From Planctomycetota bacterium (GTDB lineage: Bacteria > Planctomycetota > Phycisphaerae > SM23-33), in the NCBI GenBank assembly GCA_030635145.1, contig DAOVZK010000004.1, positions 34,497-98,496 of the forward strand: DNA of 64,000 bases, written 5' to 3'. The position numbers and the translations under genes were made by a program. Shown here in pieces: positions 36,059 to 45,807 of the stretch; positions within the stretch are counted from its first letter, which is position 1, and each line of letters starts with the position of its first letter. The notes under the pieces were generated by a model. It was not told the DNA's origin, did not search any database, and saw only the letters and a program-made list of their open reading frames with translations.

Positions 36059-36342
36059 TCTCGCTTTCGTCAATAAACAATAATTGTCCAATAATTGTCG
36101 CACGCTTTTCCCGCATGCCGCTACATCGTTTCTTATACCCCCGCGAGAAACTCCGATCAATTGTTTTCCGGTTTTGCACCTTGAATATGCGTCCAAAGAC
36201 ATTGACGCTACCTGTGAGGGGCGCGATTTCTCGAAGAGTGCCGCCCCCTTCGGTGCATAAAAAGTGGGTTATGCAAACTATTGTAAGCAAAAAAAATCAA
36301 AGTCTTTGCATTCTGCCTACTGCAATATACAATTGGAGTACT

Positions 36343-37665
36343 ATGATGCGGATAATACTTATTTCAATGGGCTTTCTTTTGATGATGACTGGTTTTGTGT
36401 CGGCTGAAAGTGAAAGCAAAACGGTCAAGCTTTCTTTCACCAAAAGCAAAAGCGTGCTCCGGCTAAGTTGGCCCATGAAACTCGGGAGCGGCGGATACCT
36501 CTTCAATAGTTCCACAAAGATATACGGGCACGATTTTTCTCTCAAGACCCAGAAAAAAGGCAGAAGCCTCGCCGTAAACCTCACCTCGAACGATGGTTCA
36601 TTTAAGCTGAAGCCCAAGATATATGCACGTAAGCCGATTGCCTTTAACATCCCCGCCAAGCTTGGCGAAAAAAATGTAATGCTGCCGTTGATGATGTCAA
36701 ACATTTTCACATCCGGCAAGGGCAAGAGCGAGGTTTATGCTCGCTACTATCCCGGGTGGGCGATGGCAGGGAAGGTCGGCAAGACGAAAATTTACCTTAT
36801 CGATGCGAATGTCGACACGAAGTTCGACACAAACGGCCGCGACTATATCGCCATCGGTTCATCGTACGCGATAAAACTTTGCAAGCAGACCGTAATCAAC
36901 GGTAAGCTTTATGAGGTATCGATCACCAGCGACGGAAGCGAGCTTACGCTTGAAGATCTCAAATCCGAGAAGCTTTGCAAAGTCGCCCTCAAAGCCCCCA
37001 AAGGCCTCGCCCGCTGGGGAGTGCTTTCTCTCAGCAACAACGAGGGAACATACAACATCGCCGCCAAAAATTGCAACGTGCTACCGGCTGGTACCTATAA
37101 AATCAGCTATGGGATATACGGCAAGGGTACGAATTACCTGTATCTCAGAAGGACCCAAAATTTCGATCCGCAGCTGGAAATTCGCGCGGGTAATATCAAC
37201 ACGATAAATATCGGTGCGCCTTTTGTTCTGAAGTTTAAGGCGACACTTACCGGCAAAACGGTAAAGGTCGATGCCAACATATCGGTCGCCGGGTGTTACG
37301 GTGAATCTTATCGGTACAGGTCATCTGTTAGAGGCAGAGGTGTGCCGCCGTCGGTGGCGATTTACGCGGGCAAAAAACGAGTTAGTACCGGCAAAATGGG
37401 GTTTGGCTGAGGCGGGAGCCTTTGCGGATACTCAAGGCGAGCATCCAAAGTTACGAAAAAAAACGGTTCGGTTGTTGTAGTCAGAACTTATGCGGGTATC
37501 GGCCGCGTTAAGGGCAAGGTTGTTTTTAGCGATGAGTCGAGTTCCGTATCCAAAGAAACGGAAATTGTAGAATACAAGCCCGTAAAAGAAAAACCGAAAG
37601 ATAACCAGACCGGCGAAGCAGAAGATAAGTCAACCGATAAAGAAAAATCGGACGATAAAGAGTAA
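36343..37665 (+). CDS. Putative secreted selenoprotein A, 440 aa; UGA 37408-37410 read as Sec356, motif FG-U-GGSLC
   Basis: GGAG RBS and signal peptide; frame stays open 84 codons past the TGA to TAA 37663-37665, then a terminator; SECIS-like hairpin; paralog at 40980-42278 has TGA at the aligned site. Confidence 0.8.
37420..37450 (+). promoter_or_regulatory. SECIS-like hairpin for UGA 37408
   Basis: CTTT-gc-GGAT-a-CTC[AAGGC]GAG-c-ATCC-AAAG; loop starts 23 nt after the UGA. Confidence 0.55.
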
Positions 37666-37779: not shown

Positions 37780-37872
37780 GGAGGTGCCCGGTATCCTGGT
37801 GGTGCCCTTGGTCTTCAAAACCAATGAGGGGCTCAAAAAGTCCTTGGTGGGTTCGATTCCCATTCACCTCCG
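37780..37872 (+). tRNA. selC: tRNA-Sec (anticodon UCA)
   Basis: Acceptor GGAGGTG/CACCTCC with discriminator G; 6-bp D stem; anticodon arm TTGGT-CTTCAAA-ACCAA; long variable arm; GGTTCGATTCC T-loop; no encoded CCA. Confidence 0.93.
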
Positions 37873-37889: not shown

Positions 37890-38180
37890 ATGACGCAATG
37901 CGAGAACAATATCACCCCCACGCGGGCTGACGAGCGACGCAGTTTATTGCTGCCGCTTGCACTGCTGGTTGCCGGCGCGATATTGTTTGCCGTCGGCTTT
38001 TTCGCAGTCCCGTGGCGTAAGGGCAAACCTGACACCGAGTACGAGTTCAATCGCGCGGTAGTTACAAACAAGCTCCCCGACCTCAATGGTGGCAGCTCCA
38101 AGATGGGGCAGGACGGTAAAACCGCCAAACCATCAAAGGGCGATAAAAAAAACGACGACTTCTGCCCTACGTGAATTTAG
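37890..38180 (+). CDS. Small membrane protein with candidate C-terminal CxxU (…FCPT-U-I*)
   Basis: AGGA RBS; one TM helix; ends TGC CCT ACG TGA ATT TAG TAA; downstream hairpin at SECIS spacing. Confidence 0.6.
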
Positions 38181-38188
38181 TAAATTTC

Positions 38189-38207
38189 GGTTACGCGTGC
38201 CGTGACC
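38189..38207 (+). promoter_or_regulatory. SECIS-like hairpin for UGA 38172
   Basis: GGTTACG[CGTGC]CGTGACC; loop starts 21 nt after the UGA. Confidence 0.5.
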
Positions 38208-38214
38208 ACCAGTA

Positions 38215-38372
38215 CTCTGTCCCATGAATAATGTTGTGTAGATGCGCCGTGCCGATGAGGTAGATGCAAAGAAGAAAAAAGGTTGCATATTAGTGGATAT
38301 TCCGCCTTTTTTCTGATGCAGCATATGCCTTGTCGCCACAAGCAGGTACCAATCAAAATTCATGGGACAGAG
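38215..38372. mobile_element. MITE-like element with perfect 15-bp terminal inverted repeats
   Basis: CTCTGTCCCATGAAT (38215-38229) and ATTCATGGGACAGAG (38358-38372). Confidence 0.7.
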
Positions 38373-38431: not shown

Positions 38432-39235
38432 ATGGCGAAAAAACTCAGCTATTTCCGACTCCGGCGAATCGTACAGTTTCTGGTTCTACCGGTCTGGATG
38501 CTGCCGATAGCTGCACTTCGCGGAATACCGGGGTGCGTTTTTCACTGCTACGCCTGCCCGCTGAGTTCCTTTGCCTGCCCCATCGGGCTTATTGCCACAT
38601 CAATGGCGATGGGATTGGTGCCGTTGATGGTGCTGGGCGTAATCTTTGTCGCCGCTGCCGCCGTCGGTAGTGCGATTTGTGGATGGTTGTGCCCGTTCGG
38701 GTTACTGCAGGATTTGTTCCATAAAATTCCGACGCCGAAATTCAAACTCCCCGCATGGACAGGAATCGGTAGATACATCACGCTCATCGCGTTGGTGATC
38801 GTAGGGCCGCTGCTTTGGGGCAAGTCGGTCGACAACTACGCTTTCATCTGCAACCTATGCCCGGCCGGTGCAATCGAAGCCGGCCTGCCTCGTATAATCG
38901 CCGGACAAGTCTCCGTCGAAAGGCTGCTGAGCGTCAAATATATTGCCGCCGCGGTAATCGTGGGGCTGATGCTTTTCACGTATCGCCCGTGGTGTCGAAT
39001 GCTCTGCCCGCTGGGCGGATTTTTCGCGCTATTCAATCGCGTGAGCGTTTTGTTCCTTCGCCTTAAAACCGACAAATGCAGCAACTGCAAAACCTGCATC
39101 GTTGACTGCCCCTGCGATATCGACGTCAAAAAGGCCATCAACACATCAAGCTGCATACGCTGCATGAAATGCACTCAATGCAAAGTAGTTTCCCCGACAA
39201 CCATATTCGAAAAATTCGGTAACGGCGGGGAGTAA
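38432..39235 (+). CDS. Membrane 4Fe-4S binding protein (NapH/MauN/YccM-like polyferredoxin)
   Basis: CYACP..CPIG, CGWLCPFG, CNLCPAG and WCRMLCPLG motifs; two CxxCxxC clusters. Confidence 0.88.
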   Translation: MAKKLSYFRLRRIVQFLVLPVWMLPIAALRGIPGCVFHCYACPLSSFACPIGLIATSMAMGLVPLMVLGVIFVAAAAVGSAICGWLCPFGLLQDLFHKIPTPKFKLPAWTGIGRYITLIALVIVGPLLWGKSVDNYAFICNLCPAGAIEAGLPRIIAGQVSVERLLSVKYIAAAVIVGLMLFTYRPWCRMLCPLGGFFALFNRVSVLFLRLKTDKCSNCKTCIVDCPCDIDVKKAINTSSCIRCMKCTQCKVVSPTTIFEKFGNGGE

Positions 39236-39263: not shown

Positions 39264-39518
39264 TCAACAGCAGCAACCGTTGCTGTCGCCACCGACTTTT
39301 TTCATTTGTGCCACGTAGAACATCCGCACAACCGCGCCACCGACACCCACCCCCAGCCAAGCCGCCTCGTCAAGTTGCTCTTGCGTAATACCCATCTCAC
39401 GCGATTTTTTGTAATGAACCTCAAAACACTCTTCACATCGCCCGAGAATTATCAATGCAAACGTCATCAGTTGCTTGGTTTTCGCATCAATTTGCCCATC
39501 CGCGGAGACGGCCTGCAT
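39264..39518 (-). CDS. Carboxymuconolactone decarboxylase/AhpD-like domain (CxxC), in frame with selD
   Basis: IDAKTKQL...RCEECFEVH...GITQEQLDEA. Confidence 0.8.
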   Translation of the reverse strand: MQAVSADGQIDAKTKQLMTFALIILGRCEECFEVHYKKSREMGITQEQLDEAAWLGVGVGGAVVRMFYVAQMKKVGGDSNGCCC

Positions 39519-39533
39519 GAATGCACCAAATTT

Positions 39534-40976
39534 TTACGCCGAATCTTTTGCCGAATCATCTACAGGCGAATTACCGCAAACGTCACTGCAGCACTCATCT
39601 TGCGATTCCGCCGGTTTTTCGCAGCACGCGTTTTGTGATGGGTGTTGGGGTTCTTTCTCCGCGGAACAGCAGCAGGGCTTGGAGGTTGCTTCCTGCTGAG
39701 GCGAAATTTGATTATTGCAAACAACCTCGATGAAACCGTCAGAGTCCTGCGTAATTTCACCGATCACCCAGGCATTGGTTCCGCTGTTTTTCAGGTCGGT
39801 TAAGGCGTCGGTAAGTTTGTCTTTCGGTATCCCCAGCAGCAGTCCGCCCGACGTCTGCGCGTCGAAGCCCAGATAATACGCACCATCTGACACGCCGTCT
39901 TCTCGCGAGATATCATCCGCGACGAACTCCATATTACGCTCAATCGCACCGGGGATAACATCATCCCCAAGCAATTCAATCGCACCGCTAAACGCCGGTA
40001 ATGCACTCGCGAAAATCTTCGCCGTCACCCCACTGGCTCTAACCATCGCGATGAGATGCCCGAACAATCCGAACCCCGTAACATCGGTGCAGGCTGATGC
40101 GTATTTGCTACCGACGACGGCGGCGGTGTTGTTAAGAGTCGTCATTGACTCGCAGCTTTCGGCAAGTCCGCACTGGTCAGCTCTGCCGATCTGGGATGCG
40201 AACGCCAACACGCCGCTGCCAAGTTTTTTCGTCAGTACCAGCACATCCCCAGTCTTAACCGAATCATGTTTGAGATATTTTTTCTCATCGACCAGCCCCG
40301 TTATGGCGAACCCGAGTTTGATTTCTTCGTCTTTAATGCTGTGCCCGCCGATTAACGCAACCCCCGCGGCGTTGAAAATTTCCTGCGCACCAGCCATCAA
40401 CTCATACATCAATTCCCCGTCGAGCGTTTCGACCGGGAACCCCAGAATGCTAAGGGCGGTTTTTGGTACACCTCCCATGGCGTAGATATCGCTGAGGCAG
40501 TTGGCGGCACAGATTTTACCCATCTGCCTTGCATCGTCCACACATGGTGTCATAACGTCGACGGTTTGCACAATGCATAGTCCGTCGGTCAGCCGATAAA
40601 CACCCGCATCGTCGGCGGCGGGTAGTCCGCAGATAACGTTCGGGTCATTGCTAACGGTCAGCCGTTTGAGGACGGCTTCGAGATCGGCGGGTGGAATTTT
40701 GCTCGCGCACCCGGCGTTATGAACCAGTTGCGTCAGGCGAATGTCTTTGATGTTTTTCGGTTCGGGGCGTTCACCGGCACACGGGCAAATCCCCTGATCT
40801 TTGAAAACATCGCACGGGCAGGGACGTTTGGGATCACATATGCAGTGCCCAAGTTTTCTCGACCGCTGCATAATTCGCCGGCGCTTAACCAGATCGACTT
40901 TCGACATCTTTTTCAAAATTTCCAATCCCTCTAGCACGGCCCCCTTCATCCCGGGGGGACGTGTTGAGGGTTGCAA
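39534..40976 (-). CDS. selD: Selenophosphate synthetase with N- and C-terminal Cys-rich extensions (Cys form)
   Basis: GCASKI, DDAGVY, QTVD, GGHSI, TDVTGFGLFGH and DAQTSGGLL motifs. Confidence 0.95.
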   Translation of the reverse strand: MQPSTRPPGMKGAVLEGLEILKKMSKVDLVKRRRIMQRSRKLGHCICDPKRPCPCDVFKDQGICPCAGERPEPKNIKDIRLTQLVHNAGCASKIPPADLEAVLKRLTVSNDPNVICGLPAADDAGVYRLTDGLCIVQTVDVMTPCVDDARQMGKICAANCLSDIYAMGGVPKTALSILGFPVETLDGELMYELMAGAQEIFNAAGVALIGGHSIKDEEIKLGFAITGLVDEKKYLKHDSVKTGDVLVLTKKLGSGVLAFASQIGRADQCGLAESCESMTTLNNTAAVVGSKYASACTDVTGFGLFGHLIAMVRASGVTAKIFASALPAFSGAIELLGDDVIPGAIERNMEFVADDISREDGVSDGAYYLGFDAQTSGGLLLGIPKDKLTDALTDLKNSGTNAWVIGEITQDSDGFIEVVCNNQISPQQEATSKPCCCSAEKEPQHPSQNACCEKPAESQDECCSDVCGNSPVDDSAKDSA

Positions 40977-40979
40977 ATG

Positions 40980-42278
40980 CTACTTCGTCCTGATTTTCGT
41001 ATCCTTGAGTTTAATTCCAAACGGCCCGGCGGCGACCTTCGGTTTGATCGTAAACACTCCGCTTAAATTCTTTGGCACACTCCACGTGTGCGAGCATGTA
41101 CCACCTCAACCATACTCAAACTTACCCGTGTGGACAAGTTTGCCTTGCTCGTCGAAAACTTCCACTTGAGGTTTGCTGCTGTACATCGAATTAACCATCG
41201 CCGACATCCCCGACACATCGGTTAGCTTGAAATTCATCGTAATCCGCCGGCCGCGAGCTTTGATTTTTATTTGCCCGGTTAGCGGAGCTCCGATAGCCAG
41301 CTCAAAAGTCTTACCAGCTGCTGCATTGAATTTCTTCGCCGTTTTCTGCCGCAAGTTCTGCTGATCAATGCTCAATACATCGCCCTTGGTTGGTTGGATC
41401 TGCGTAAACTGCATCACAGTGTATTTACCGGCGGGAATTTCCATTGGTTTGCTGGAACCATCAAGCATCAGTATGTAGTCTTTACCGATTAGACCGATCG
41501 ACCAGTTATCATGATCGATTTTGAGCGTGGCTGTCTTGGCGGTTGAGGGGGTCGCGACAATTTCCGACTTGTCGGGCGACAACGCCACGTCGTACCAAAC
41601 ACCATCAAGAAGTACCGGTGCACCGTAGAGGGATTTTTTCAATTGATTCGGCTGCTTGAAGTTTCCCTTTCCCGTATCAATCAGCAACGTATCTCCGATT
41701 GTAACTCCGCTATTTTTCTGATATCGCGACTTGCTACCGCAGTTCAGGTTGTTGTTACCATCGACAATACGCACCGGATAGGTTTTGTCGCCAAATTTGC
41801 AGGTACCTTCCAATGCGGTTCCAAGGTATGCAATGATGTATTTATGATCACTGCTTGTATAGATGTGTCCCGAAAGCATTACCGGTATGGATTTACCGTT
41901 ACGTTCTACTTGTAATGTTGCAGGTCCAAAGTTCAAGCGGGAAGGATTACCCTTCTCCCTTTTTTTCAGGGGGACTACTTGCTTGTCGTTAAATTTGCCC
42001 TTGCCGCTGAAGTCAAAACGGACTACGTCGAAGCCTTCGGTGTCGGGTGATTGCGAGTCGATTGCCACGCGGATATTCTTCCCCCGCAGCTTTGTGACGA
42101 GAGCTTTTTTGCTGACGGTACCGTCGCCTTCTTTTGGCTTGGTGAATTGGTGGGCAAACAACGATTGTTGCATTATCGCCTGGCCCTGAGTTGCGGGGAC
42201 TGGTTTGAGATCCCCTTGGGCGATAGTTGCAGTCAAAACAACCAGCAGTAAAATGAACAGACCTATTGACGTTTTCAT
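40980..42278 (-). CDS. Putative secreted selenoprotein B, 432 aa; UGA 41106-41108 read as Sec391, motif YG-U-GGTC
   Basis: Signal peptide; frame continues UGGTCSHTWSVPKNLSG...IRTK to TAG 40980-40982, just before the selD start; lies between selB and selD; SECIS-like hairpin. Confidence 0.85.
41075..41091 (-). promoter_or_regulatory. SECIS-like hairpin for UGA 41106
   Basis: GCACAC[GTGGA]GTGTGC; G-starting loop 20 nt after the UGA, matching the general bacterial SECIS pattern. Confidence 0.7.
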
Positions 42279-42385: not shown

Positions 42386-44332
42386 TTATTCGTTTTCGAG
42401 AATTTCGCGGGCCAGTCGGCCGGGCCGGCGGCGGTTGGCGTTGCGGACGGTCCAATGCGTAACGTCGAAATAATCCAGCAGCGGCACGGCGTATTTTCTG
42501 CTGACACCGATGGCGTCGCGAAACTCAACTGTCTCGAAGAATTTCTGCCCGCGGAACAAATCGAGCACAACTTCGCGCGCCTTATCCACACCGCATTTGT
42601 GCATGTAGACGTTATCAGCTAACCGCACCGCCAAGCTGCGAGAACAAATCAGCTCCAGAACCTCGTCAATTTTTTGCTGCGGAGACTGCAGCTGCTCGGC
42701 AAGCTGATCGGGACGCGGTGGAGCACACAGAGATTTTTTTAATACGCTCAATACTTGTTCGTAAAGTTCTGCAATATCGCTCGGCAGCGAGAGATTAAAT
42801 TCGCAGTGCGAAATTTTCCCCGCCTCTTCGCTGATTTTTCCATCGGCGAGAAGTTTTTCGCAGCACTTGGCGAAAATCGCTTTGGGCAAGGCCGTCTGTG
42901 TAAGCAGGGCAGCTGTGTCGAGCCCCGGTAACTGCGGGTTGGCTGCGTGGAATTGTTCCAGTGCGTGCGTAATAGTTTCACATGCCTGCGAAAAATAATC
43001 CGCACCGGCAATTGAATCCCCAAGAACGATGGCGTCGCCATGCTGCGTAAGGTTTGCGATAATTCCCGCGATTTCATTGTCGGTAAGTTGCAGCATATCC
43101 GCCAGGCCGTCGGTGGTAACCATGCGATCCGAATATTTTAAATAGCGTTTTGCAAAGTTTGTAGCATATTCTGGGTGTTCGATGGCGTCGCTGAGTTGTT
43201 CAAGTTTTTCGATTACTTCAGGCCGGTTGCGGCGTAATTTGCGGTTGCTGCGATCCAGAAACACACCGCCACCCAACGTCGTAAAAATTCCGCCCATCTG
43301 CCCGCGAACAACGAATCGGTCACCCGGAATTACGGGCAGCTTGACAGCGGATCGAAACTGAACATATCCACGCCAGTTCGATTCCATAACACCGGATGAC
43401 AAGGGAACGATTTTGACCGGCACGTCTATGGTGCCGACATGCAGGCGGACTTCGGCATGGTCTTTGATAGGTTTTGCGATGCTCCCCAGCACGCGAAACG
43501 ACGCTTCGAACATCTCGGGTGTCGCTATTTTTCGTTCGCTGAGCAAGCTTCCGCGGGTGCAGTCTTCGGGGGGCGTGTTGGCGAGATTAATCGCCGTACA
43601 TTCGCCCGCCCGGGCTGTGTCGCAGAGCTGCCCGTAAACCTCAAGCCCGCGGACTCGCACTTTTTTTCCCGATGGCCAGGCGCAGAGGGCATCGCCAACG
43701 CTCACGCTACCGCTGCACGGAATTCCCGACGCGACGGTTCCGAACCCCTTGACGTGAAAACTTCGCTCGACCCACTGGCGGTAAAGTCCACCGGTGCTTC
43801 GCTCAGCGGTGGCGTCGACTTCGCGGTTCAGCTCGGTCAGAAAATTGTCGTACCCCTCGCCGGTAATATTGGAAACTTCGCAAACCGCCTTGCCCTCGAG
43901 AAACGTACCCTTAACGAACGACCGTATCTGCCCACCCAGTTCCATCCGCCGTTTTTCACTCACGAGGTCAACCTTAGTCATCACCACCAAACCAAACGTC
44001 ACTCCCATCAGCGTAAGAATATCCAGATGCTCGCGGGTTTGCGGCATGATGCCATCGTCGGCGGCGATAACGAGCATCAGCACATCCACACCGTGCGCAC
44101 CGGCAACCATGTTTCGGATGAACCCCACATGCCCGGGAACGTCCACAATGCCCACAATACGATCATCCGCCATTTTGCACGGGGCAAAACCCAGCTCGAT
44201 AGTCAGCCCGCGCGTTTGCTCTTCAGCGAGCGTATCGGTGTTGCACCCAGTGAGCATTTTCACCAGCGCCGTCTTGCCATGATCCACATGCCCAGCCGTC
44301 CCAAGCATCACGTTTTTACAACGTTGCGTCAT
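42386..44332 (-). CDS. selB: Selenocysteine-specific elongation factor SelB
   Basis: GTAGHVDHGKT, RGLTIELGF and DVPGH motifs; C-terminal winged helix FRDAIGVSRKYAVPLLDYFD. Confidence 0.96.
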   Translation of the reverse strand: MTQRCKNVMLGTAGHVDHGKTALVKMLTGCNTDTLAEEQTRGLTIELGFAPCKMADDRIVGIVDVPGHVGFIRNMVAGAHGVDVLMLVIAADDGIMPQTREHLDILTLMGVTFGLVVMTKVDLVSEKRRMELGGQIRSFVKGTFLEGKAVCEVSNITGEGYDNFLTELNREVDATAERSTGGLYRQWVERSFHVKGFGTVASGIPCSGSVSVGDALCAWPSGKKVRVRGLEVYGQLCDTARAGECTAINLANTPPEDCTRGSLLSERKIATPEMFEASFRVLGSIAKPIKDHAEVRLHVGTIDVPVKIVPLSSGVMESNWRGYVQFRSAVKLPVIPGDRFVVRGQMGGIFTTLGGGVFLDRSNRKLRRNRPEVIEKLEQLSDAIEHPEYATNFAKRYLKYSDRMVTTDGLADMLQLTDNEIAGIIANLTQHGDAIVLGDSIAGADYFSQACETITHALEQFHAANPQLPGLDTAALLTQTALPKAIFAKCCEKLLADGKISEEAGKISHCEFNLSLPSDIAELYEQVLSVLKKSLCAPPRPDQLAEQLQSPQQKIDEVLELICSRSLAVRLADNVYMHKCGVDKAREVVLDLFRGQKFFETVEFRDAIGVSRKYAVPLLDYFDVTHWTVRNANRRRPGRLAREILENE

Positions 44333-45747
44333 TGGGCTGCACCGATCATCGCAAAGGTTTTTGCAATGGCATCTATGTCGCCCGGAAGCAAGGTTCGCAC
44401 ATCGAGAATGACTTTCTCCTCGCTTATACGGCTGAAAATCGGCACCTCGCCCGTTCGCAACTCAGCCCCCAGCGAATCTGCCGACATCCCATCAACGCTA
44501 ACCCCCACGCCGAATCCGGGAAGCTTTTCCATCGGTAACGATCCGCTCCCGAGGAAACCTGCTGAGTCGATGACGGCGGCGGCGACTTTCCCCGAGGCCT
44601 TGCTGATAGCATCACACAACTGCTGCGCCGTTTGCTTAAGTTCGTCGGGCTTCAGCGAGAGCATCATGTAAAGCGGATGTTCGCGGTTGAGCTTTTCACG
44701 ATCACGAAAAAGCATCAATGTTCGCTCAAGCACCATAAGCGAGCTTTTGTCGGCCCGAAACGCACGATACAACGGGTGCTTACGACATTTGTTGATAAAC
44801 TTTTCCTTACCGACGAGAATTCCGCCTTGGGCGGCACCGATGAGTTTGTCGGCGCTGAAAAGTACGATATCGGCCCCGGTTTGCACGGAGTGCTGCACGG
44901 TCGGTTCGTGCGGAAGCCCGTAATCGGCAAGGTCGACAAGTGCCCCGGCCCCAAGGTCGTCGATCATCGGTAAGTCATGCTCGTGGGCAAGGGCGGTGAG
45001 TTCTTCGACGCCTACGCTGCTGGTAAATCCGACGATTCGATAGTTGCTGGGATGTGCGCGGAAGACGGCGGCGGTGTTTTCGGTGAGGGCTTTTTCGTAG
45101 TCGCGCAGATGCGTGCGGTTTGTCGATCCGACTTCGACGAGTTTGCAGCGTGAAAGCTCCATGACCTCCGGTAAGCGAAAGCTCCCGCCGATTTCGATCA
45201 GCTGCCCGCGCGAAACGATGACTTCTTTGTTGCTCGCCATCGCTGCCAACACCAACGTGGTTGCGGCGGCGTTGTTGTTGACCACGATCCCGGCCTCGGC
45301 GCCGGTTAGTTCGCAAAGCATGTTGTTAACTTTGGTGTCACGCTCGCATCGCTTGCCGGTTTTTTCGTCTATCGCAAGCGTTACGTAACCCTTAAGGTCG
45401 TTGATGATGTCGTCGACTACGCAGGTCGGCCAGACGGCACGGCCTAATCCGGTGTGCAGAATGATGCCGGTGGCATTTACGGCCCGTCGCAGATGCGGCC
45501 GCGTTCGCTCGCACAGATTTTGCTGCACGATACCCAAAATGAACTCGCTGCTGATGTGCTGCACTCCGCAGCGGCCGGTGCTGTCGTTGAGAATCTGCTG
45601 GCGCAGAGAATCGATAGCATCTCGCACGCAATTTACCACGAGCGTTCGCGGATGATCTTGCAGCCAAGCCGCCACGATATCAATTTTAATGAGATCATCT
45701 ATCGACGGAAGTTTTCGCAAAAGTTCTTGTTTGATCGCCGCTGCCAT
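44329..45747 (-). CDS. selA: L-seryl-tRNA(Sec) selenium transferase
   Basis: NATGIILHTGLGRA, VNNNAAA, SRGQLIEIGGSFR and FSADKL motifs; ATGA overlap with selB. Confidence 0.96.
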   Translation of the reverse strand: MAAAIKQELLRKLPSIDDLIKIDIVAAWLQDHPRTLVVNCVRDAIDSLRQQILNDSTGRCGVQHISSEFILGIVQQNLCERTRPHLRRAVNATGIILHTGLGRAVWPTCVVDDIINDLKGYVTLAIDEKTGKRCERDTKVNNMLCELTGAEAGIVVNNNAAATTLVLAAMASNKEVIVSRGQLIEIGGSFRLPEVMELSRCKLVEVGSTNRTHLRDYEKALTENTAAVFRAHPSNYRIVGFTSSVGVEELTALAHEHDLPMIDDLGAGALVDLADYGLPHEPTVQHSVQTGADIVLFSADKLIGAAQGGILVGKEKFINKCRKHPLYRAFRADKSSLMVLERTLMLFRDREKLNREHPLYMMLSLKPDELKQTAQQLCDAISKASGKVAAAVIDSAGFLGSGSLPMEKLPGFGVGVSVDGMSADSLGAELRTGEVPIFSRISEEKVILDVRTLLPGDIDAIAKTFAMIGAAQ

Positions 45748-45807
45748 ATCAGCCTCCCACAAGTAGCATTAATTTTTTCGACAAGATTACAGGATAGTTA
45801 TTTGTTT

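Follow-up and report, generated by a model that had tools for sequence, protein, structure and literature searches.

A candidate selenoprotein family with penultimate selenocysteine, encoded near selC in planctomycetes of the Phycisphaerae type

Selenocysteine (Sec) at the C-terminus of a bacterial protein, or right beside it, combined with a recoding hairpin that follows the true stop codon, has precedents in SaoC and KCU-star/DUF466, as described in the accessible part of the source (10.1101/2022.07.06.499078). In that part, SaoC (NF040734) ends in Cys-Sec-COOH, its gene in UGA-UAG, with a 7-base-pair (bp) stem and a G-containing loop, and both this gene and that of KCU-star/DUF466 (NF033934) adjoin genes for membrane transport proteins (10.1101/2022.07.06.499078; PMC13188914, likewise available in part); the '-star' selenoprotein families are tabulated in the available portion of PMC13188914. 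Here we describe a small gene in a 64,000-nucleotide (nt) stretch of the genome of a Planctomycetota bacterium (GenBank assembly GCA_030635145.1, contig DAOVZK010000004.1, positions 34,497 to 98,496; this whole stretch is referred to as the window), situated directly behind selC, the gene for tRNA-Sec. Comparison with its relatives makes it highly probable that the small gene represents a real and new selenoprotein family, with a penultimate Sec, that is anchored in the membrane and travels with an Fe-S membrane protein.

The likeness to SaoC and KCU-star, as far as the accessible text describes these, is that all are bacterial, carry Sec (here a predicted one) at or beside the C-terminus, and have their selenocysteine insertion sequence (SECIS) past the true stop, a position that follows from the placement of Sec so near the end of the protein. 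The differences are several. There is no sequence relation, and the small protein is matched by none of the NCBIfam models NF040734, NF033934 and, for UXX-star, NF041114 and NF041211; it would end in CxxU plus one or two residues rather than in CU-COOH; it has a signal-anchor-like single helix followed by a disordered tail; Cys is present in most members of SaoC and KCU-star, but no Cys form of the present family came to light; and the gene stands beside that of a NapH-like Fe-S protein rather than that of a transporter. No description of the family was found in the literature, in which the deep-Sep and BSepDB supplements might list one, and the family table of a 2026 review holds nothing alike in the portion available (PMC13188914). 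We take the family to be new, of a kind already known, namely bacterial selenoproteins with a C-terminal Sec, and unusual in three traits: the lack of a Cys form as far as found, a place behind selC that is nearly constant, and the overlap, in most members, of the SECIS with the start of the partner gene.

The gene family, its UGA and its hairpin

The 94-codon frame that opens at position 37890 ends TGC (38163) CCT ACG TGA (38172-38174) ATT TAG (38178-38180) TAA (38181-38183), exactly as the preliminary description, made from this DNA alone, had read it. The same description spoke of tandem true stops; these are present in the window (TAG TAA) and absent from the relatives, which have a single true stop. 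The predicted protein begins with a P-T-R-x-D-E-R motif, has one transmembrane helix at about residues 19-37, and continues through a disordered linker of about 55 residues, rich in K, D and G, to a tail that reads D-F-C-P-T-U-I if the UGA stands for Sec.

Relatives came to light by several routes. A single-protein search of 60 related genomes returned nothing beyond the gene itself, and word-indexed protein searches returned only the query or copies already known. An exhaustive HMMER search of 1.84 billion representatives yielded three relatives (P0004-P0006, 38-47% identity), all of which, compared as proteins and not as DNA, end (F/Y)CPT at the very point at which the window protein terminates. 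The profile built from these four proteins found two distant copies with DNA among 92 genomes of the taxonomic family, and both read CPT-TGA, one or two more codons, a stop and a hairpin; in addition, loci around true selC genes were read for CPT followed by TGA, TGG, TAA or TAG. A richer profile, blind to the stop codon, was run over 99 genomes of the order and placed the small gene in 16 of them at E <= 5e-11; a seventeenth genome, G033, whose copy has a divergent N-terminus, was found by reading. All 17 end in C-x-T, which is CPT in 15. Further loci were drawn from a DNA pattern that contains the TGA and the hairpin core. Of its 31 matches, 11 fall in other phyla and are unrelated sequences matched by chance; the remaining 20 belong to the family and include 7 new loci, one of which is a duplicate. 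Because the pattern includes both features, these matches are not evidence for either. The set of 22 loci used below consists of the 16 stop-agnostic members and six further distinct loci from the TGA-containing pattern.

The distribution is narrow. In a class-wide sample of 401 genomes the small gene occurs only in two GTDB families (11/60 and 1/4 genomes), with 0/337 in 22 other families; a phylum sample of 401 genomes gave chance-level matches only, and DNA searches for related loci in genome contigs and metagenome contigs, made with the first alignment, gave none. Records that carry the gene are labelled Phycisphaerae, Phycisphaerales, Phycisphaeraceae, Planctomycetaceae, Planctomycetota or planctomycete metagenome-assembled genomes (MAGs), and public annotations stop these proteins at CPT and leave them without a name. 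No Pfam or NCBIfam family matches the small protein (0 families at E <= 0.1), and the Pfam scan found no reductase domain in it; the homologue of locus L033 has three far-sub-threshold, unrelated matches in NCBIfam, and a sequence search of the PDB gave one chance match, to Tom20 (E = 0.043).

What the members share is a simple architecture. In all 18 aligned sequences the N-terminus is basic and often carries the motif P-Q-P-P-I-D-x3-R-x-S-E; a single hydrophobic helix, which supports the membrane anchor proposed earlier, leads on to a tail ending (D)(F)C-P-T; the tail is 51-86 residues long, and 63-83% of it is small, polar or charged. More than 20 homologues have the N-terminal motif, the helix and the C-terminus in common at 20-48% identity. 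This comparison shows the frame at 37890..38180 to belong to a real gene family. In one copy (G042:C12, L058 / L064) the N-terminal and helix part is out of frame with a CPT-TGA-GTG-AAG-TAA tail, through either a frameshift or an assembly error.

The codon that follows C-x-T is TGA in 16/16 stop-agnostic members and in 22/22 loci overall, the six added loci not being independent on this point; no member ends CPT-TAA or CPT-TAG, so the question whether the codon is always TGA receives a positive answer. The in-frame stop that comes next at these 22 loci is TAG in 8, TGA in 9 and TAA in 5, and ahead of the UGA there are synonymous differences in the Pro and Thr codons. Since the true stop varies among all three codons, stops are evidently free to drift here, yet the UGA does not. 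Between the UGA and the true stop there are one or two sense codons at all 22 loci: the first encodes I, V, L or P throughout, with Val written as GTG 11 times, GTA three times and GTC once, and the second, where present, encodes K, N, D or E. The other two frames after the UGA have no comparable regularity at these loci, and the comparison as a whole shows coding constraint acting on the sequence just after the UGA. A genetic code in which TGA is a general sense codon was considered and rejected, because TGA ends about a quarter of the long frames.

Downstream of the true stop in the window lies the hairpin GGTTACG (38189-38195), CGTGC (38196-38200), CGTGACC (38201-38207), with seven pairs of which one is G.U; its stem begins 14 nt and its loop 21 nt past the UGA, and in size, spacing and position wholly after the true stop it agrees with what had been reported before. 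In the 22 sequences a 7-bp stem stands 14-16 nt past the UGA, and the 5-nt loop is CGUG(A/C) in 21 of them. Pairing is kept in 99.3% of 153 cells, pairs 2 and 6 have changed on both sides, and pair 3 occurs as U.G (10), C-G (8) and U-A (4). The covariation score was reached by 0/500 shuffles, and controls slid along the alignment pair in 10-51% of cells, so that the earlier question of a conserved and covarying hairpin is likewise settled in the affirmative.

A comparison of a different kind is offered by two large paralogous proteins of the window, of about 430-516 residues, in which an in-frame TGA falls in the motif (F/Y)G-U-GG-x-C. Homologues are present in 37/92 genomes of the taxonomic family; most of them contain a single in-frame TGA, some lack it, and no Pfam or NCBIfam family covers them. 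Most copies that were read carry, 14 nt past the UGA, the hairpin GCACAC-NUGGN-GUGUGC, with 6 bp and the 5-nt loop (G/A)UGG(A/C). From their sequences these proteins look like a second, larger unrecognised selenoprotein family. They share with the small gene the clade, the neighbourhood of sel genes and the geometry of the hairpin (14 nt, 6-7 bp, a 5-nt loop with UG), and they differ from it as unrelated proteins of about 430 residues with an internal Sec, 40-85 residues after it, and TGA-less forms. The claim that all three UGA-containing genes of the window have the same spacing holds for the UGA at 41106-41108 (6-bp stem, loop from nt 21) and fails for that at 37408, where in the best fold the loop covers nt 24-28 and the stem is interrupted. 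Taken across members, the alignments show that the hairpin of the small gene is conserved and that its position matches that of a second recoding hairpin in the clade.

The small gene is also tied to the Sec machinery. Its ATG in the window lies 17 nt past the end of tRNA-Sec, in the same orientation. With a true selC defined in this analysis as at least 67 bits and 92-94 nt, 36/92 genomes of the taxonomic family possess one, and 13 of the 14 carriers of the small gene are among these 36; in 11/13 the small gene immediately follows selC on the same strand, with 15-263 nt between the two. In G111 and G033 the small gene and its partner stand as a pair away from selC. The fourteenth carrier is G014. 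On its contig (G014:C258, L056 / L102), bases 1-220 hold, upstream of the small gene and near the contig end, only a sequence similar to the 3' half of tRNA-Sec, in which ARAGORN finds no tRNA and the anticodon-loop region reads CTTTAAA instead of CTTCAAA; the small gene there ends C-D-T-U-V-K. A decayed selC would explain this sequence, as would an artefact of assembly at the contig end; something odder is also conceivable. The window itself contains the complete Sec gene set, selA, selB, selC and selD, with the protein models all beyond their curated cut-offs. In this genome the matches to Molybdopterin, AhpC-TSA and Thioredoxin (contigs C29, C48, C71 and C82) lack an in-frame TGA, and no Rdx protein came to light; with the usual client families lacking the codon, the machinery needs other clients.

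The iron-sulphur partner and the possible role of the pair

A Fer4_5 gene lies directly downstream of the small gene at 22/22 loci (the window and 21/21 others), and conversely all 17 genomes of the order that hold a full-length orthologue of this partner (E <= 1e-118) have the small gene directly upstream. The partner has about four helices, two C-terminal CxxCxxCxxxC ferredoxin motifs and 24 invariant Cys, among them CxxxCxxCPx6CP after helix 1, CGWxCPFG at the end of helix 2, CxxCPxG after helix 3 and WCxxLCPLG after helix 4. It resembles the Fer4_5 ferredoxins NapH, MauN, NosR and CcoG in its PF12801 domain, its CxxxCP-type motifs at helix ends and its two C-terminal 4Fe-4S motifs; it differs from NapH and MauN in scoring far below their cut-offs (TIGR02163, 45 vs 213.05 bits; NF007013, 49.9 vs 234 bits), in the extra invariant CxxxCxxCPx6CP block and in its strict pairing with the small gene. 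A sequence search of the PDB found no solved relative of the partner, and its AlphaFold2 model has a mean predicted local distance difference test (pLDDT) of 63.7.

The partnership with the downstream 4Fe-4S membrane protein that the preliminary description had suggested is thus supported by genomic linkage, and structure prediction lends weak support to a complex of the two. The predicted complex scores 0.60 (runs 0.66, 0.47 and 0.60) vs 0.02 for the best control, in runs that share at least 74% of contacts and with a partner pLDDT of at least 55, and the figure is to be read against a mark reached by 58/80 solved complexes and 2/110 mismatched pairs, of which just 7 of the 80 solved complexes and both passing mismatches reached it at 0.60 or under.

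As to orientation, the count of Lys and Arg over 18 sequences (60 on the N-side vs 37 on the C-side) suggests a cytoplasmic N-terminus and a tail outside. In the mechanism we infer, which extends to the actual insertion of Sec, the orientation in the membrane, direct contact of the protein with its partner, the chemistry, the direction of electron flow and the substrate, SelB on the hairpin at 38189-38207 would direct Sec insertion at the UGA at 38172, 14 nt upstream, and translation would then add one hydrophobic residue and end at UAG to give a 96-residue single-pass membrane protein. Its short basic N-terminus would probably lie in the cytoplasm, followed by one helix and a flexible, charged tail of about 55 residues ending C-P-T-U-I. 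The Cys-x-x-Sec of this tail could form a selenylsulfide, which the Fe-S partner may cycle to and from the selenol/thiol form by passing electrons from its cytoplasmic ferredoxin-type clusters through the conserved Cys motifs to the Cys/Sec pair; with electrons arriving there, the tail would serve at the membrane surface as a tethered arm for redox reactions or for the handling of metals or metalloids, and its candidate substrates would be an oxidant, a disulfide, a soft metal, or selenium en route to SelD.

Animal thioredoxin reductase has a Gly-Cys-Sec-Gly tail in which a flexible Cys/Sec pair carries electrons from a buried centre to substrates. A resemblance to that tail had been drawn for the small protein, and it may stand as an analogy between flexible C-terminal Cys/Sec pairs; it does not extend further, since thioredoxin reductase is a large flavoenzyme with adjacent CU and a eukaryotic SECIS, and the small protein is a separate 96-residue membrane protein with CxxU and no reductase domain.

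A variant of the selenoprotein reading, which differs from it in function only and which we hold to be rather unlikely, is that the pair serves selenium or metal trafficking instead of electron transfer. On this view the Cys/Sec pair of the tail would trap either a soft metal or selenium, the latter for instance in a selenotrisulfide-like adduct derived from selenite, and the partner would reduce and release what is trapped, feeding SelD. The order selC, small gene, Fer4_5 gene, AhpD-like gene, selD does recur, with an AhpD-like homologue in 12/21 other loci and selD in 10/21, as far as the fetched DNA reaches; SelD has Cys-rich extensions outside its TIGR00476 core; CcoG and NosR, relatives of the partner, act on copper centres; and tails of the CxxU/CxxC type typically serve as ligands of soft metals. 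However, selenoprotein genes often adjoin sel genes through co-inheritance, the pair stands away from selC in two genomes (G111 and G033), and Pfam and NCBIfam scans of the cluster find no transporter or known selenium-binding family. A bold possibility along the same line would be that the pair, the AhpD-like protein and the Cys-rich SelD together form a selenium-delivery module.

The features of the locus are collected in Table 1. The AhpD-like gene is convergent with the small gene and its partner, and its product, of 84 residues with a CEEC motif, has weak similarity to AhpD-type (seleno)protein models. In SelD the TIGR00476 core covers residues 79-385 of 479, the N-terminal extension has CxC and CPC motifs and the C-terminal one CCC and CC runs, and the active-site position is Cys, not Sec. 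The repeat ahead of the partner gene has inverted arms at 38215-38245 and 38342-38372 and other copies in the genome (88% over 159 nt on contig C71, 85% over 162 nt on C18, and shorter pieces elsewhere), and from its sequence looks like a miniature inverted-repeat transposable element (MITE) inserted between the hairpin and the partner gene.

Table 1. Features around the small gene, in positions of the window
Feature	Coordinates	Strand	Basis
Large (F/Y)G-U-GGxC protein	36115..37665	+	in-frame TGA at 37408
selC, tRNA-Sec, anticodon TCA	37780..37872	+	ARAGORN; Rfam RF01852, 69.3 bits vs gathering score 47
Small candidate selenoprotein gene	37890..38180	+	96 codons + stop; translation, homologues
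UGA as candidate Sec codon, residue 95	38172..38174	+	TGA at the aligned position, 22/22 loci
True stop TAG, then TAA	38178..38183	+	sequence
SECIS-like hairpin GGUUACG-CGUGC-CGUGACC, 3' untranslated region	38189..38207	+	fold, conservation
MITE-like repeat, about 160 nt, inverted ends	38211..38372	.	between hairpin and partner gene, in this genome only
Partner gene, polytopic Fer4_5 / NapH-like membrane protein	38432..39235	+	Pfam PF12801, 57.7 bits vs cut-off 22
AhpD/CMD-like small protein, CxxC, ends NGCCC	39264..39518	-	PF02627, 45.1 bits; TIGR00778
selD with Cys-rich N- and C-terminal extensions	39534..40976	-	TIGR00476, 321.3 bits, over curated cut-off
Large (F/Y)G-U-GGxC paralogue	40980..42278	-	in-frame TGA at 41106-41108
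selB	42386..44332	-	NCBIfam TIGR00475, 287.7 bits, over curated cut-off
selA	44329..45762	-	NCBIfam TIGR00474, 524.6 bits, over curated cut-off

Weighing the case for recoding

A number of observations weigh against reading the small gene as a selenoprotein, and several of them concern the window locus taken by itself. TGA is unremarkable there, given that it ends 406/1594 long frames of the genome. The 60-nt fold has z = -0.59, with 55/200 shuffles folding as well; among long frames of the genome, hairpins of at least 7 bp with the loop 16-28 nt past the stop follow 103/1160 TGA, 151/1482 TAA and 117/1069 TAG codons; and the genome has 262 hairpins with an NGTGN loop, dozens of them with a TGA 11-18 nt upstream. 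At this one locus, then, chance could account for the hairpin, given that about 10% of all stops have one, and any excess over chance comes from the comparison with relatives only. The comparison has its own limits. The relatives are not independent, so that counts overstate significance; just one or two residues follow the UGA, which in absolute terms leaves little evidence for read-through; the stem is for the most part near invariant, with two pairs that never vary and three that vary one-sidedly; no relevant Rfam match was found for the hairpin region; the copy in G042 is frameshifted; the carrier G014, an 87% complete MAG, is without an intact selC at 67 bits or more; and the charge difference that suggests the topology (60 vs 37) is modest. 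Homologues with Cys in place of Sec are one classical criterion for a selenoprotein, and the CPTC variants that the preliminary description had proposed to look for did not turn up: no Cys-containing homologue was found among the 99 genomes of the order, the samples of 401 genomes each from the class and the phylum, or the protein databases. That criterion is customary, not mechanistic.

Much of this could be accommodated if the product were an ordinary small membrane protein that ends in CPT at the UGA, and the hairpin an initiation or regulatory structure for the Fer4_5 gene rather than a SECIS. Public annotations do end the proteins at CPT, no Cys form is available to anchor a Sec/Cys pair, and the statistics of the hairpin at a single locus are at chance level. 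More pointedly, the arms of the hairpin hold the two in-frame ATGs of the partner (the start M-R-D/A-M) in 16-17 of the 21 other loci, and therefore some of the sequence conservation may serve that start. The window bears on this point. Here both ATGs have been lost and the partner starts 224 nt further on, behind the inserted repeat, yet the hairpin retains its seven pairs, with a compensatory change at pair 6, and the CGUGC loop; at L011, L043, L057 and L064, too, the partner starts elsewhere and the hairpin is still kept. An ordinary stop also fails to explain why the TGA is invariant (16/16 in the unbiased set) while the next stop uses all three codons, or why an in-frame stop always follows one or two codons on, behind a hydrophobic codon with synonymous variation, which is unlike a non-coding spacer. 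Nor would it account for the confinement of the gene to selC-bearing genomes (13/14 carriers in the taxonomic family), its place next to selC, or a hairpin whose spacing and shape equal those of another UGA-containing family. We consider this explanation distinctly improbable, and the recoding part of the selenoprotein reading to be well supported.

That the frame might be a chance opening downstream of a tRNA, as the first empty searches (0/60 relatives, and only the query in the word-indexed search) and the lack of a Pfam family could have suggested, is already refuted by the more than 20 homologues with their conserved N-terminal motif, helix and C-terminus, and we assign it next to no probability.

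Selenium-dependent coupling and wider meaning

If the hairpin is a SECIS, its overlap with the start of the partner gene raises a further idea, tentative and on balance doubtful, namely that it doubles as a gate for that gene and provides selenium-sensing translational coupling. In most members the start codons of the partner lie inside the hairpin arms, 21-25 nt past the UGA. With termination at the UGA the hairpin would stay closed, whereas a ribosome that inserts Sec would reach the true stop two or three codons on, enter the stem and free the start codon for re-initiation. Were this so, the Fe-S partner would be made only with selenium available and the selenoprotein completed.

The small gene points to a selenoprotein family that gene callers and curated libraries have overlooked and that, as far as found, exists in the Sec form only. 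With a SECIS wholly outside the coding region it would be a clean natural case of that arrangement in bacteria, and in most members, where the putative SECIS overlaps the start of the partner, a new kind of selenium-dependent coupling becomes directly testable. The pairing of the two genes points to an uncharacterised membrane redox pair, made up of a tethered Cys/Sec arm and a NapH-like Fe-S protein. Together with the second UGA-containing family, the small gene may explain why planctomycetes of the Phycisphaerae type keep the whole selenocysteine machinery.

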